A DNA stretch of 44,948 bases, from contig SDNO01000002.1 of assembly GCA_004524435.1 (NCBI GenBank), positions 1-44,948 on the forward strand, given 5' to 3'. The position numbers and the translations under genes were made by a program. This document shows, piece by piece, positions 4,030-38,042 of the stretch; the first letter of the stretch is position 1; each line of letters starts with the position of its first letter. The notes under the pieces are model-generated. The model had not been told where the DNA came from, did no database searches, and saw only the letters and a list, made by a program, of their open reading frames with translations. Source of the stretch: Candidatus Thorarchaeota archaeon (GTDB lineage Archaea; Asgardarchaeota; Thorarchaeia; Thorarchaeales; Thorarchaeaceae).

Positions 4030-4956
4030 TTGAACCTAGAGAGAGTACTGACAAAACTGAAGTTTGATGAATCAGTCAGTGGTTACGCTCTCTTGACCAA
4101 CGATGGCTCTCCATTCCTGTCATTTGCACTCCCCGAGCATTCCCTCCCTCTGATTCAAGGGACAATGAAGATACATGCCTCCTCACTGAAGATGATGAAT
4201 ATCATGACCGGTGATGGGGTTGTGATTCTTGCGCGCGTGAACCCCGAATGGGTGTTAGCCGTGAACTTCTCAGAGTTACAGCTCGGGATTGCGCTGAAGC
4301 GAACGCAGGATGTTGTGGAGCTGCTGAAAGAAGTAGATCTCCCTGCTCCTCCTACTCCTGATGAGGAACCAGAAGAGGAGATGGAGCCCGAACCAGACGT
4401 TCCTGAAGCAGAGATAGAACCGGCAGAGACTTCCGAACCAACGGAGGAAATCATTGAGGAGATTCCACTTGATGAGGTTGAGATACGTCACGGATGCCTC
4501 ATATTGCGTGGCCCTCTGTATAATGATGCAGCAAGCATTGACTCGGAGCTGAGCCGTACTCTCAAAGAGAAGTACTCGGGTCTTGGAACAGACATTCTGC
4601 TAATGGTAGACGAGAAGCGAACCACCCTCAAGATTGCTGAGATTCTTGGCAAGACGGTAGATAACGTCATTCAAGTGCTATGTTGGTGCGTTTCGAAGCG
4701 CATCTTAGATGCAGAGTGTCCTGAAGAACAGGAGTCAGGCATTCGTGAGATAGTCGAGGTTCCGCTTTTCGAGGGCTCTCTCGAAAAGGCCAAGAAGGAG
4801 CATCGGCAGGTCTTGGAGCTGTGCAATGGCATCAACACACTGCATGAGATTGCAGCGAGGTTAGGCGTCCAGTATTTCGAGGCTCTACAGAGCACTCTGC
4901 CCTACAAGGGTAAGACTCTACGATATGTAAAACGAGATAAATCCACCAAAGGATAG
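4030..4956 (+). CDS. Roadblock/LC7-like domain + acidic Pro/Glu linker + tandem winged-helix protein (paralog A1)
   Basis: N-terminal ~105 aa with roadblock pattern ending 'LQLGIAL'; PEEE-rich linker; 'VLELCNGINTLHEIAARLG'; clear paralog of 6974..7969. Confidence 0.6.
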   Translation: MNLERVLTKLKFDESVSGYALLTNDGSPFLSFALPEHSLPLIQGTMKIHASSLKMMNIMTGDGVVILARVNPEWVLAVNFSELQLGIALKRTQDVVELLKEVDLPAPPTPDEEPEEEMEPEPDVPEAEIEPAETSEPTEEIIEEIPLDEVEIRHGCLILRGPLYNDAASIDSELSRTLKEKYSGLGTDILLMVDEKRTTLKIAEILGKTVDNVIQVLCWCVSKRILDAECPEEQESGIREIVEVPLFEGSLEKAKKEHRQVLELCNGINTLHEIAARLGVQYFEALQSTLPYKGKTLRYVKRDKSTKG

Positions 4957-32404: not shown

Positions 32405-32418
32405 TGCAAGGGGACCAA
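32405..32418 (+). repeat. 14-bp intergenic motif TGCAAGGGGACCAA
   Basis: Exact reverse complement at 34879-34892. Confidence 0.7.
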
Positions 32419-33340: not shown

Positions 33341-33457
33341 TCGAAAACCCAATTCGCGGTCGAAAAAGTGACAAGCTTTTTTAGATAGACAACGTGCATC
33401 GTATTGAGAAATATCTCCCCGCAGGCCTTGCCTCAAGGGACCGGGAGTAAGAAAAGA

Positions 33458-34597
33458 ATGCCCGTTGCGATGCTCTTAATCGATTGGGACAGTAAGATTG
33501 GCGCCGTTTTGAAGGCGAAAGTCCCGGATGACTTTGCGGACTACTACCGTGAAGACCTGAATACTGAAGCCATGAGGATCTTCACTTCACACGCAATGGG
33601 TGATGCCACTGCGGGATTCTCTACTCTCAGCGTCAGAGTAGGCGGTGAAGAGTACAATGTGGCCTCCTACTACACTGGGATTGTGCGAGAAGAGGAGCAA
33701 TACTGCGTCTCTCTCTTGCTAACACCATCTGAAGATCCTAAGACGTATGAGGCTGCCATCACATCCGTGGTGTCTCCCATCACAAATGCAGTCATATCCA
33801 TGACAGATGCAGAACTTCAGGAAGAACTCGACAACACGTATCGAAGAATCATACGTCTAGCCGGTATGACAGATGAGAGTCGTTTGGCGCGCTTGTTCTA
33901 CGATGAGGTCTCTCGTGCTGTGTTTCCGAAGCTCTGGAAAGGTGGCATCTCCAAAGAGGATTTAGAAGAGTGGCTCAAAATGGTCACTGGGCTTCCCAGT
34001 GTCAGTGTTGACTCGATACTCTCTCCATTCGAGGAGTTGGGCTTGGTCAAGAGCGAGTGGGTTGACGAGATTGGCCGGACTTGTGTGTTCATGATCAAAG
34101 ACCTTGAGGTCTTCAGAGCTCCACCTCTCACTGCGATGGAATCCGCAGCCGAGATTCTGGATCCTGAGCTTGCTGCTCAGTACAAGGCAGAGGTACTGGA
34201 GTTTCTCACGGAATGGAAGAAGACACCTGAAGATACAGTGGCTATCGCTGAGGTACTCGCAGATCCGGATTGCTATGATGTGTTGACCGAACTCCGGACC
34301 CGCCCAGTGAGCGTTGCGGAGCTGGAGGCATCCCTTGGTATTCCTCCCAAGGAGCTCAGAGCTGCAATCGAGACTCTCAAGAAGTACCGTGTGATCTCAG
34401 AAAAGAGGCGGAAGGGCGCCTCTGGCGAGTTTGACAAGTGGCTCTTCCTGCTGAACGACATCCGAGTACGGCTCTTCTTCCCTGAGTACTTCCTTCAAGA
34501 TCTCATCACCGAGCTTGAGAAGACCCCAGATGACTCTCGTGCTCGAGAGATGGTCCACCAGCATCTGCGCCTCTTGCGAGACAATTTCCCAAGGTGA
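33458..34597 (+). CDS. Longin/uDENN-like domain protein with winged-helix C-terminus
   Basis: 'MLLIDWDSKIGAVLKAKVPDDF' start typical of uDENN/NPR2-type longins; 'VSVAELEASLGIPPKELRAAIETLKKYRVI'. Confidence 0.6.
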   Translation: MPVAMLLIDWDSKIGAVLKAKVPDDFADYYREDLNTEAMRIFTSHAMGDATAGFSTLSVRVGGEEYNVASYYTGIVREEEQYCVSLLLTPSEDPKTYEAAITSVVSPITNAVISMTDAELQEELDNTYRRIIRLAGMTDESRLARLFYDEVSRAVFPKLWKGGISKEDLEEWLKMVTGLPSVSVDSILSPFEELGLVKSEWVDEIGRTCVFMIKDLEVFRAPPLTAMESAAEILDPELAAQYKAEVLEFLTEWKKTPEDTVAIAEVLADPDCYDVLTELRTRPVSVAELEASLGIPPKELRAAIETLKKYRVISEKRRKGASGEFDKWLFLLNDIRVRLFFPEYFLQDLITELEKTPDDSRAREMVHQHLRLLRDNFPR

Positions 34598-34762
34598 AAG
34601 AGGCAATCTGCACAGGTTATGTCCGGTCTTTCATTCGCTTCTGACGGGACTGAAGAATAGGTCTCCTATCCATTCTTTACTCCGATACTAAGACATGACG
34701 GGCTATCTCAACCAAGGTAGAAGACAGGCAAAGTTCTTATGTGGTGAATGTGTTCAGAATAC

Positions 34763-35076
34763 TGCGGTTCCGAGTTTGCTCGGATTTCCGCATTTCGAAT
34801 GCTCAAATGCAGGGCGTGTGAATTCCCCGTCGGAAACTCGCATTCGCAACATTGGTCCCAAAATTTGAGTTTCTAGCATTGGTCCCCTTGCAAGATCCCC
34901 TTGCAAACTTGCGCATACTGAATTCTTTCGTGCGCCTTGTGATTGGGCTGGTCTATATGACCTGACGGATGCGGAAGGTTCGCCACTACGGCCCTTGGCC
35001 TGGCGAGCCCCGCTCCTACATTTTGGAAGCAGAGAGTCTGATAGTGCTTGGCAGATGACGAATCATCTCAGGCACG
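34763..35076 (+). ncRNA. Putative structured non-coding RNA, family unknown
   Basis: At least five hairpins, some with G-U pairs; TATA-like TTCTTAT at 34734-34740; no ORF >=60 aa in the gap. Confidence 0.4.
34850..34906 (+). repeat. Nested short direct repeats
   Basis: CATTGGTCCC at 34850 and 34877; TCCCCTTGCAA at 34883 and 34896. Confidence 0.7.
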
Positions 35077-35114
35077 ACTTGACAAGGAGAATGAATTGAT
35101 TTCGTCACAGGCCT

Positions 35115-36047
35115 CTACTTCTCTATCGCCTTTCGAAAGTATAGGAGAGTGTATACCTCTCTGTAGCCTAGTTTGTGATAGAGCGAGATAGCCGGTTCTG
35201 CCTCACTATGCACTAAAAGGGATGACCTAGTTATCCCCATGTCAGCAGCTCTAGCCAAGACCGCTTTCAATATATGGGTTCCAAACCCTCTACCTCTGTC
35301 CTGTGACGCGACCCCAAAGCCTTGGATCAACAGGTTCTTTTCCTCCGATGCTTCCCCCTTGTCCAGTAGACGCCCGTGGCAATAAGAGACTATTTCTCCA
35401 TTGTGAGTCCCTACTAGACTGAGTTCTCCAACGAAATCGTCCCGTTTTCTCAACTCTTCGTAGAAGTCGGAGGTAACAGGCACATAACGGAAGTGGCCCT
35501 CGAAGAGTCGATTCTGTAAGTCCGCCCATTGGGACGAATCCACGCCCTCTGCCTTCCTGATCTCATATTCGGGAATGGCTGTGGGGTGAGTGAAATTCCG
35601 AAGACTACGCAATACCATTCTCTTTAGCCCCCCAACCTTGACACATCCCCAGTTCTTCGCGGCATTGATGGCATATTCTCTGAAGCTCGGGACGATGCAT
35701 ACAAAGGCATCGAAGTCTTTCTGCTGATCCATGGACTCTTCAAGCAGAGCGGTACCTATCCCTTGCTGTCTGAAATCTGGATGGACATGAAGGCGCATCA
35801 ACAACTCCCCCGTCCTGCGTCTGTCTGGGAAGAACACCGATGAACCGATGAGTCTGCCCTCGGAATCTCTGGCAAGAATTGCATTCTCTTCTGGCTTACT
35901 CCCGTGTCTAGAAAAGAGAAGCCGTAAGTAATCCCCATCGATATCCCGATGATCCGTATCATCTTGGCTAGTCACTGCGTTATATAGGTCTGCAAGATCT
36001 TCAAGCATATCATTGGAGCCTTTCTCAAGCGATATCATCCCACTCAC
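35115..36047 (-). CDS. Tandem GNAT acetyltransferase (MshD-like architecture)
   Basis: 'VHPDFRQQGIGTALL' and 'VASQDRGRGFGTHIL...AISLYHKLGY'; start moved to GTG 36047. Confidence 0.85.
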   Translation of the reverse strand: MSGMISLEKGSNDMLEDLADLYNAVTSQDDTDHRDIDGDYLRLLFSRHGSKPEENAILARDSEGRLIGSSVFFPDRRRTGELLMRLHVHPDFRQQGIGTALLEESMDQQKDFDAFVCIVPSFREYAINAAKNWGCVKVGGLKRMVLRSLRNFTHPTAIPEYEIRKAEGVDSSQWADLQNRLFEGHFRYVPVTSDFYEELRKRDDFVGELSLVGTHNGEIVSYCHGRLLDKGEASEEKNLLIQGFGVASQDRGRGFGTHILKAVLARAADMGITRSSLLVHSEAEPAISLYHKLGYREVYTLLYFRKAIEK

Positions 36048-36212
36048 ATTGATACCGCTCCCATCATGGGATATTAGCCTGATGGACGGCTCCGCTATTC
36101 GGTGCCTTGGATATGACTGAGATAACAATGAGTCCGTCAAGGATTGATTTACATATACATTGAAGGAAGATTCCCAAGGATAGACCATCTTCGTAGCATC
36201 GGTGAACAGGCC

Positions 36213-38042
36213 TTGATTCATAACACGTTCCTAGTCCGTGTCTCCAACAACAAAGTACTCGCATCGACCCAGTATTGGCCAGTGGATGTTGAACCGGAGG
36301 AGATTGCAGAGTTTATCGAGACCAGGTCAGATCTGCGGTCAGCCGATACCTCCATGTCTGAGATTCCTCTGATAATCGGTGACGACAAGTACCACGGTGT
36401 CGAAGTAGTCCGAGACCTCCTCTTGGTGTTCGTAACAGATACCAGTGAAGATGAACATTCCATCTTTGAACGGATGGAGGATGCGGTCAAGCCCCTGAGA
36501 AGAACACTTGAGAAGAAGGGGCTGGACGAGCTGGTCGAACACTACGAGGCTCTCATCGAACCATCCGTCACTACCCGTCTGAAGATTGCTCTTGTCGGGG
36601 AGGGTGGTGTTGGAAAGACAACGACCCTGCACCTACTGCTCGGCGATACACCTCCAAAGCAATACGTCCCCACCATAGCTCTCAATCTGGAAACCGTGGA
36701 GAACATCCGCTTTGGGAACTACAGCCTCGTTTTGTGGGACTTCGCCGGCCAGGAGCGGTTCAGAACGCTCTGGCGCTTCTACTTCCACGGCGCAGATGTC
36801 ATCTTCTTGGTGTGTGACTCTACGCTGAGGAATGTTATCATCAGTAAGGACATCCTGAAGCTGATACGCCGTGATGCTCCCAAGGTCCCTGTCTTTGCCC
36901 TAGCAAACAAACAGGACAAGCCCAACGCAATGAAGCCTGAGGTCGTCCACAAGATATTGGGGATTCCTACGTATCCCATGGTGGCAATTGACAAGGAACG
37001 CCGTGACGAAATGCTGAGGATTCTGATGAACGCTGCAGCCCAGTATGTTGGGGTAGTGCTTCCTGACCTTCCTGCAAGCGAGCTCCTGAGATTCAGCGAT
37101 GAGGCTGCTGAGAGGGCTGCTGTGGTTGACCTTCGAGGGGAAGATGAGGAAGAGGAGTACGAAACGGTTGAGGTCATCGAAGAGGTGTATGTGGACGAGG
37201 ACGGTCACATCATCGAGGACACAGACGACTACGAGATCATCGAAGAAGTCGTTGAGGAAGTGGAGATTGAACCCGGTGAGGAGCTGGATGTTGAAGATAT
37301 TGATGTGGCGCCCGAGGAGCCTGCAGTCCCTGAGACCAGCACCGATTTCGTGATAGTCGAAGAAGATGAGACCGAAACTGCGGAGGAGATTGTTGAAGAA
37401 CCCCCTGTTTCTGGAGATATCCCAGAACCTGCATATCATTCCTCCACTGAGTTGGTTCCTGTCGAAGAGGAATCTGAAGCCGCCTCTGAAGATGAGGCTA
37501 CATACGAGATAATCCCGATTCAAGAGGAAGAGGGAGAGGCAGAGGAACAGGCAGAGGAACCCCCCACTGAGACTCCTGAAGAGGAATTCGACGTGGAAGT
37601 GGAGGATAAGGGTGCCCCTGCGGAGATATCAGTTGAAGTATCAGACGAAGCCAAAGAAGAGGTGGAGGAGGTACCAGAACCTCCATCTGAGGAGGAGATG
37701 ACTGACGAGCTGCGCCTCGTCAAGGATATCCTCTCCGAAAAGCTAGATGCAGACGACATAATTGCGGAGGAAATAGACCGGACAGCTCCGGATGACCTCG
37801 ATATTGCTCTCGATGCGCTGAAGTGTGAAGAGACTGTGAGCCCGAACGGAACAGAGACTGAGGCTCCGGATGAACTGAGAGAGGATGAGCTTCTAGACCT
37901 CGATAGAATCTTGGGGCTCTTGGACGACAAGACTACACCCCCGCCAGATGACACAGAATCCGCTGAGAAACCGGAGAGTGTAGACGAAGATACCCTTGTT
38001 GAGCTTGAAGAGATAATCGACCCCAAAGAATCTCATGACTAG
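36213..38042 (+). CDS. Longin-like domain + Arf-like small GTPase + long acidic disordered tail
   Basis: GEGGVGKTT, YVPT, WDFAGQERFRTLWRFYF, ANKQD; TTG 36213 after GGTGA; E/D/P-rich C-terminal half. Confidence 0.85.
   Translation: MIHNTFLVRVSNNKVLASTQYWPVDVEPEEIAEFIETRSDLRSADTSMSEIPLIIGDDKYHGVEVVRDLLLVFVTDTSEDEHSIFERMEDAVKPLRRTLEKKGLDELVEHYEALIEPSVTTRLKIALVGEGGVGKTTTLHLLLGDTPPKQYVPTIALNLETVENIRFGNYSLVLWDFAGQERFRTLWRFYFHGADVIFLVCDSTLRNVIISKDILKLIRRDAPKVPVFALANKQDKPNAMKPEVVHKILGIPTYPMVAIDKERRDEMLRILMNAAAQYVGVVLPDLPASELLRFSDEAAERAAVVDLRGEDEEEEYETVEVIEEVYVDEDGHIIEDTDDYEIIEEVVEEVEIEPGEELDVEDIDVAPEEPAVPETSTDFVIVEEDETETAEEIVEEPPVSGDIPEPAYHSSTELVPVEEESEAASEDEATYEIIPIQEEEGEAEEQAEEPPTETPEEEFDVEVEDKGAPAEISVEVSDEAKEEVEEVPEPPSEEEMTDELRLVKDILSEKLDADDIIAEEIDRTAPDDLDIALDALKCEETVSPNGTETEAPDELREDELLDLDRILGLLDDKTTPPPDDTESAEKPESVDEDTLVELEEIIDPKESHD

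Follow-up and report, generated by a model that had tools for sequence, protein, structure and literature searches.

Regulatory RNAs that base-pair through C-rich motifs include RsaE/RoxS of Firmicutes and Staphylococcus RNAIII with its UCCC loops, and in the icaR 3' untranslated region (UTR) a UCCCC motif pairs with the message's own ribosome-binding site. OLE, raiA, ROOL and GOLLD are large orphan structured non-coding RNAs (ncRNAs), bacterial or phage-borne and all present in Rfam. The Asgard archaea are the closest known relatives of eukaryotes, and to our knowledge almost nothing is known of their ncRNAs. Here we describe an RNA gene in a contig of Candidatus Thorarchaeota archaeon (assembly GCA_004524435.1, contig SDNO01000002.1, positions 1 to 44,948 of the forward strand; this whole stretch of 44,948 nt is called the window, and coordinates refer to its + strand unless stated otherwise). 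Comparative analysis of the sequence indicates that ~34760-35024 (+) of the window is a free-standing, single-copy gene for a structured ncRNA of ~265 nt, and not a product of chance.

The Thorarchaeota RNA resembles RsaE/RoxS, RNAIII and icaR in its exposed, repeated C-rich motifs, complementary to G-rich ribosome-binding-site sequence. As in the RsaE/RoxS type, it has its own promoter and terminator (predicted here), and the candidate target is a nearby gene. The differences are substantial. RsaE/RoxS-type RNAs are bacterial and ~100 nt long, whereas the present one is archaeal, ~265 nt long, and has a covarying three-way junction and further invariant strands; there is no sequence or Rfam relation, and the pairing proposed below is predicted and shows no co-evolution beyond six bases. 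With OLE, raiA, ROOL and GOLLD the RNA shares its discovery by comparative genomics, an elaborate covarying fold, a restricted lineage and its orphan status; unlike them it is matched by no Rfam family, and it is smaller than most of them.

Fold and covariation

The locus had been singled out in an earlier note, made from the letters of the window alone, which proposed an RNA of ~310 nt with its own promoter in a gap between convergent genes. The gap is as described: 517 bp at 34598-35114 separate the open reading frame (ORF) 33404-34597 on the + strand from the convergent ORF 35115-36221 on the - strand. The flagged 343 nt fold at -124.2 kcal/mol on the + strand (z -3.15) and with z -2.65 on the - strand, and in neither case was any of 100 shuffles as good.

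Further evidence comes from the homologues, whose core domain is represented by a covariance model of 137 positions with helices P2 and P4. Pairs were counted in 71 model-aligned homologues (68 distinct sequences), and the same counts with the pairing partners slid by one to three columns served as controls. Among the distinct sequences, standard pairs occupy 88.3% of cells, versus 30-50% with slid partners, and the covariation score is 0.514 versus 0.07-0.14; none of 500 shuffles reached the observed values. An alignment fitted to a model favours the structure, but the slid controls carry the same bias, and the margin is still large. Two-sided changes are seen at 19 of the 21 modelled pairs. 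The modelled helices contain 131 G.U cells versus 24 A.C cells, and therefore the + strand is the RNA strand, as the G-U pairs of the note had suggested.

The predicted fold consists of three parts, namely the rod P1'/P2 that closes it, a three-way junction and a separate hairpin at the 3' end: the stacked long-range helices P1' and P2 close the junction, which bears hairpins P4 and P5, and P6 with a U-run finishes the RNA. The long-range helix was first proposed by RNAalifold and is absent from the stems listed in the earlier note. P2 is a helix of 13 bp between CAGGGCGTGTGAA (34810-34822) and TTCGTGCGCCTTG (34927-34939), with two-sided changes at all 13 pairs and 85.4% of cells paired. The segment GTGCGC, which the note had assigned to a local hairpin with GCGCAT (34911-34935), is part of this 3' strand, and the local hairpin has to be abandoned. 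P1' joins GCTCAA (34801-34806) to TTGGGC (34943-34948); here cognate 5' and 3' flanks pair at -9.06 kcal/mol, versus -6.60 kcal/mol for non-cognate ones (63 and 3614 pairs, respectively; Mann-Whitney p 4e-11, not corrected for relatedness).

Hairpin P4 (34832-34874) is formed by GGAAACTC (34832-34839) and GAGTTTCT (34867-34874) around a loop of ~27 nt; two-sided changes are seen at six of eight pairs, and 93.1% of cells are paired. This helix contains one of the two alternatives that the note had given for AAACTC at 34834, namely GAGTTT at 34867, while the other, at 34772, is not kept in relatives, as judged by eye. Nor are the competing pairings CGAATGC/GCATTCG and CTCAAAT/ATTTGAG (by eye), and the switch or pseudoknot that had been drawn from such pairings loses its ground with them. 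P5 (34888-34906, TTGCAAG-ATCCC-CTTGCAA) is variable: its sequences are unrelated between genera, and of 56 distinct sequences 52 fold into a hairpin at -4 kcal/mol or below (mean z -3.6). The 3' hairpin P6 (34967-35016, GGA-T-GCGG ... CCGC-TCC) extends a hairpin that had been noticed at 34971-35013 and proves real; across 55 distinct hairpins the GGA/UCC base pairs are conserved, and pairs 4-9 each occur with four to five standard pair types.

Two smaller elements are optional. The 5' hairpin P1 (34763-34792, TGCGG-TTCCGAG-TTTG-CTCGGA-TTT-CCGCA), the first stem of the earlier note, is kept with changes within the same genus, while other genera have a different hairpin or none at this position. 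Similarly, the small hairpin GGTC-TATAT-GACC (34950-34962) exists as predicted, though only in three genera (g1, g5, g13), and is absent in most others; both comparisons were made by eye.

Conservation is highest in nucleotides that are C-rich and, formally, unpaired. At the junction these are CCCCGUC, CUUGCGCAU and two copies of the GGUCCC motif, one within the P4 loop and the other, GGUCCC(C), on the strand joining P4 to P5. In the junction strand CCCCGTC (34825-34831), CCCGT is invariant in an alignment of 19 sequences, and no pairing partner was found for the strand. Motif 1 (34854-34859, in the P4 loop) reads GGTCCC in 68 of 71 aligned homologues. Motif 2 (34881-34887, GGTCCC(C), on the strand between P4 and P5) reads GGTCCC in 45 of the 71; in the remaining 26 it is split by an inserted hairpin (14 sequences), reads (A)GTCCC (9) or takes other variants (3). 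The strand at 34907-34917, ACTTGCGCATA (also given as ACUUGCGCAUA), is nearly invariant in the alignments and likewise has no pairing partner that could be found.

Several tertiary contacts were considered by eye and rejected. A pseudoknot between CCGU of CCCCGUC and ACGG before P6 is contradicted by three sequences that read AAGG without compensation; variants of the P4 loop leave a pairing of its CGCAA with UUGCG uncompensated; and a possible switch pairing of CGCAU with AUGCG of P6 is uncompensated where P6 differs. For pairing between the two GGUCCC motifs themselves (GG/CC twice), one variant supports it and one contradicts it, both motifs being nearly invariant.

Promoter, transcript end and bounds

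Upstream of the RNA a candidate promoter, conserved in nearly all homologues, is found at 34723-34741, with a purine-rich stretch resembling the transcription factor B recognition element (BRE) and the TATA-like TTCTTAT at 34734-34740. The latter lies 23 nt ahead of the hairpin 34763-34792, just where the earlier note had placed it. Alignments and a listing of upstream sequences give the family consensus ACYAGRAAGnTTCWTATG; in the alignments a 5' part that varies comes after it, and then near-invariant blocks. At the other end, the T-run ATTTT (35020-35024) is the likely transcript end (predicted), and in 35 of 53 distinct homologues TTT is found no more than 22 nt after P6.

These bounds agree with the extent of conservation. 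Two genomes of the same genus are 86-87% identical over ~34749-35018, after which similarity ends, and the core common to the matches of the DNA search is ~34819-35019. The conserved RNA is ~265 nt rather than ~310 nt long, and the strong hairpin GTGCTTG-AGATGA-CGAA-TCATCT-CAGGCAC at 35044-35075, which had been counted as its last stem, is outside it, as it is not shared even by same-genus genomes. The convergent acetyltransferase gene has its stop codon 40 nt before this hairpin, which may be part of that gene's 3' end.

Distribution

A DNA search of 61 related genomes matched 27 of them, the window's own included; within the window's family, 25 of 36 other genomes were matched. The covariance model gives exactly one match in each of 73 of the 86 genomes of the family; matches are present in 21 of 23 high-quality family genomes, representing 14 of 16 genera. 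In a sample of the whole phylum, searched with stricter filters owing to its size, 24 of 26 family genomes were matched and none of 124 genomes from 26 other families.

In the two genera missed by the model, divergent versions were recognised by eye, so that the RNA is present in all 16 genera of the family. In each of them the promoter motif and the 3' hairpin are present, together with two (G)GUCCC motifs and additional inserted hairpins; one version follows the same neighbour gene, and the other is on a separate contig. A second covariance model (71 sequences) did not detect the variant of genus g2, and it found that of g16 only at E 0.43. A loose sequence-pattern scan added a single homologue confirmed by nhmmer (L048, from a metagenome-assembled genome of an 'uncultured archaeon') among the at least 120 stretches listed. 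In the only sister-family genome, the two neighbour genes are directly adjacent, without such an RNA between them. As far as the model detects it, the RNA is specific to one family of Thorarchaeota.

Comparison with known RNA classes

Membership in a known family was defined as a match of an Rfam 15 covariance model at or above its gathering score. There is none in the whole window. When E-values up to 10 were admitted over 34550-35250, only mir-611 appeared, with a chance-level 15.7 bits against a gathering score of 90, and the same scan over 20 diverse homologue loci gave four weak unrelated matches, none of them recurrent and none on the RNA itself.

Archaeal RNase P RNA and signal recognition particle (SRP) RNA, both named in the earlier note as families whose match would remove the novelty, are similar to the Thorarchaeota RNA in size, occur in one copy per genome and also have a closing helix formed from distant segments. 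They are, however, encoded on other contigs of the same genome, where both score above their cut-offs (RF00373 at C69:2039-2376, 156.7 bits; RF01857 at C73:799-1107, 99.6 bits); the present locus is unmatched by either model and shares none of their motifs. A box C/D or H/ACA guide RNA was rejected on inspection by eye: conserved C/D boxes are absent, and P6 lacks an internal-loop pocket. The longest complementarities to 16S and 23S ribosomal RNA of a relative, 10 and 11 nt, are at chance level (shuffle means 9.1 and 9.9).

The earlier note had also offered an origin from a mobile element. This does not hold, because the RNA is single-copy, with no copies elsewhere, and always lies between the same two genes; omega RNA, bridge RNA and group II introns were rejected on these grounds, the neighbours being genes for a longin plus winged-helix protein, a GTPase and an acetyltransferase. 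The central proposal of that note, an unannotated and uncatalogued structured ncRNA with its own promoter, is upheld by the covariation, the conserved promoter motif, the single copy per genome and the lack of an Rfam match. A full-text literature search for ncRNAs and structured RNAs of Thorarchaeota or Asgard archaea returned no paper describing this RNA in its title or in the opening of its abstract.

Other RNA genes or candidates were encountered in the same genome. On contig C211 (-) near 4503, and also at the end of contig C182, a similar promoter-like motif, AAAGAGTTCATAT, precedes a long inverted repeat; this may be another small RNA gene. ARAGORN found a tRNA-Sec gene at C196:17196-17286 and only 16 tRNA genes in this 87%-complete assembly; a tRNA scan of the whole window gave none.

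Neighbouring genes

The RNA lies on the same strand as the upstream gene, 137 nt past its stop codon, at all loci seen, and it is the next gene after the upstream one at every locus whose sequence extends far enough. The gene order is fixed: the same two genes flank the RNA, with a GNAT acetyltransferase gene added in four genera.

The upstream gene (33458-34597, true start ATG 33458) encodes a protein of 379 aa. Within the window's family its identity is 80-97%, and it is a member of a multi-copy protein family that 112 of 151 genomes of the phylum contain. Pfam gives only a weak HTH_20 match. In the structure model, a confident one (pLDDT 89.2, pTM 0.80), a longin domain is followed by helices and two winged-helix domains, and the best Foldseek matches are GATOR1 chains of the Nprl2/3 type, SEAC, FLCN-FNIP, a Lokiarchaeota Roadblock-Longin protein and DENND1B, with E-values from 1e-4 to 1e-2. 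The predicted likeness is one of domains, since whole-chain TM-scores are low. The promoter block of this gene, GACAAGCTTTTTTAG (33368-33384), is strongly conserved among orthologous leaders. In many genera GCTCC stands ~25 nt before the GGGACC box described below and could pair with the GGAG ribosome-binding site.

On the other side, the gene at 36213-38042 (+) encodes an Arf/Roc/Rag-like GTPase with an N-terminal extension of ~120 aa, which probably starts at TTG (LIHNTF...; M or V in other genera). A conserved promoter-like block of its own and a conserved GGTGA ribosome-binding site precede it. Where no acetyltransferase gene is inserted, it is the next gene, on the same strand as the RNA; in genera other than the window's its start codon lies 75-130 nt after the RNA. 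Together with the upstream longin plus winged-helix gene it looks like a pair of a GTPase and its regulator. The double-GNAT acetyltransferase gene (35115-36221, - strand) is found between the RNA and the GTPase gene only in the four genera mentioned, the window's included, and its product is just 34-47% identical between genera, far below the conservation of its neighbours.

Candidate target and possible modes of action

The explanation that we favour, though at somewhat less than an even chance, is that the RNA regulates in trans by means of its C-rich motifs; the best candidate target is the upstream gene's leader. An action in trans is suggested because the downstream gene is convergent here, and elsewhere the GTPase gene has its own promoter and GGTGA site. 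In this scheme the exposed GGUCCC motifs would pair with G-rich sequence, above all with a GGGACC box immediately ahead of the Shine-Dalgarno sequence in the leader of the upstream gene, which codes for the Nprl2/3-like longin plus winged-helix protein. With its 6-8 bp the duplex would extend into the ribosome-binding site and alter translation of this gene, more probably by repression than by activation; the same pairing could also form inside a read-through transcript.

The box was found in the leader at 33437-33442, followed by GGGAG (candidate target 33437-33447), ahead of the ATG at 33458, and it is the exact complement of the GGUCCC hexamer, which, as in a small RNA (sRNA) with C-rich seeds, is carried both in a loop and on a junction strand. 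Of 40 orthologous leaders, 30 carry GGGAC[CTA] with its first base at -21 to -18, and in all 30 it abuts the ribosome-binding site, with GGAG, GGGAG or GGA within 2 nt after it; no other block from the promoter to the start codon is so well kept. The predicted duplexes of RNA and leader range from -12 to -22 kcal/mol in leaders that have the box. Duplexes are somewhat more stable than those formed with shuffled leaders (mean z -1.8 with motif 1, -1.35 with motif 2). In the sister family's one genome the upstream orthologue (65% identity) is present, without the RNA and without the box. In one genus the box reads GGGACU, and a subgroup of its RNAs reads AGUCCC, making the match longer (by eye).

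A number of observations weigh against this explanation. The co-variation expected of a seed and its target is not seen: duplexes of cognate partners are no better than those with the leaders of other genera, neither for motif 1 (-13.48 versus -14.02 kcal/mol, mean rank fraction 0.62) nor for motif 2 (-15.42 versus -15.30 kcal/mol, 0.50), and by this comparison RNA and leader show no co-evolution beyond the shared hexamer. Ten of the 40 leaders are without the exact box (six are one base off, four have none), and three genera lack it throughout while their RNAs keep both GGUCCC motifs, so that something besides this target must hold the motifs. Moreover, an RNA of 265 nt with a conserved junction far exceeds the needs of an antisense contact of 6-8 bp, and CCCCGUC and CUUGCGCAU are not accounted for by the target pairing. 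The genome as a whole gives no sign of a wider regulon: a box with ribosome-binding site and ATG occurs 9 times versus ~9 expected (by our own arithmetic), and 12-mer complements of the exposed strands, with at most one mismatch, occur 4-26 times per word versus ~12 expected. The contact is plausible, as the adjacent gene has an exact, position-fixed complement next to its ribosome-binding site. It comprises, however, only six to eight bases, and pairing with the upstream leader cannot be the only constraint on the RNA.

A G-rich partner sRNA was also sought in the gene-free gaps, where 63 GGGACY sites gave nothing clear. Within the window, GGGGACCAA at 32410-32418 (+), in a gap free of genes ahead of the thymidylate kinase gene, is a 9-nt exact complement of UUGGUCCCC in motif 2; the match may be due to chance, since the 8-mer GGGGACCA occurs 33 times on the contig strands (reverse uncounted).

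The persistence of the motifs in genera without the box, and their conservation, which is much better than that of the box in the message, would fit an RNA that is the scaffold of a ribonucleoprotein or titrates a protein. The invariant C-rich single strands, with GGUCCC occurring twice, would then be sites for one protein or a dimer, and the complementarity to the leader would be incidental or would reflect binding of the same factor by RNA and leader. Conserved unpaired strands are usual for surfaces of protein or tertiary contact, and the strongest conservation here is in junction strands for which no pairing partner was found; the RNA is also long, has an elaborate fold and occurs as a single copy, in all 16 genera of the family. 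However, the partner protein is postulated; neither of the conserved neighbours (the longin plus winged-helix protein and the small GTPase) has a known RNA-binding role, and the distributions disagree, the upstream protein family being found in 112 of 151 genomes and the RNA in none of the 124 outside its own family. Of the domains that mark the partner proteins of Y RNA and vault RNA, neither TROVE nor Vault was matched in the 87%-complete genome of the window, although the Vault result says little because that search matched no control genome. On balance we regard this explanation as rather unlikely.

Conserved unpaired nucleotides gathered where several helices meet, with a long covarying rod closing the junction, are, on the other hand, typical of ribozyme and aptamer cores, and the three-way junction with its invariant joining strands could be an active site or a ligand pocket. 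A catalytic or ligand-sensing RNA nevertheless seems improbable: no Rfam ribozyme or riboswitch was matched at E up to 10 in the window and the 20 diverse homologues, no hammerhead core was seen by eye (consensus CUGANGA plus GAAA), and the RNA is not the leader of any gene in the window's genome.

The same strand and the distance of 137 nt from the upstream stop codon, together with the complementarity to the upstream gene's own leader, would fit a cis-acting part of a message, namely a 3' UTR of the upstream gene folding back onto that gene's ribosome-binding site; the counterpart would be a leader or riboswitch of the GTPase gene, which follows on the same strand in genera that lack the inserted acetyltransferase gene. 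Both forms are very doubtful. The RNA has its own promoter motif, conserved ~25 nt before it, and ends in a hairpin and a T-run. It is not a leader because the next gene is convergent here and the GTPase gene elsewhere has its own conserved promoter-like block and ribosome-binding site, and in the four genera (the window's included) with a convergent gene between RNA and GTPase gene the conservation of the RNA is unchanged.

That the locus is no RNA gene at all, but a small protein-coding gene or a set of DNA operator sites (GGTCCC/GGGACC) for a regulator, is hardly credible: ORFs of 42-57 codons do overlap the 5' part and the hexamer occurs three times around the upstream gene, but compensatory changes preserve the helices while the sequence varies, the hairpins P1, P5 and P6 vary in length and would break any reading frame, and the short ORFs leave the conserved core 34819-35019 uncovered.

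Significance

The finding is a mid-sized, strongly covarying RNA, kept in one copy in every genus of an Asgard family, between two genes of eukaryote-like GTPase signalling. Regulation in trans by GGUCCC pairing beside the neighbour's ribosome-binding site is a specific proposal open to bench experiments, and irrespective of their outcome the RNA makes a clean candidate for a new Rfam family. Since it is flanked by the gene for the Nprl2/3-like (GATOR1-type) longin plus winged-helix protein and the gene for the longin-Arf/Rag-like GTPase, a further-reaching role can be imagined, though we consider it a long shot: the RNA might be an integral regulatory or sensing part of an Asgard small-GTPase module, its junction binding a protein of the pair or a metabolite and the GGUCCC:GGGACC pairing setting the level of the Nprl-like protein. 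If so, it would be something for which we know of no precedent, an RNA-controlled forerunner of nutrient and GTPase signalling of the eukaryotic type.

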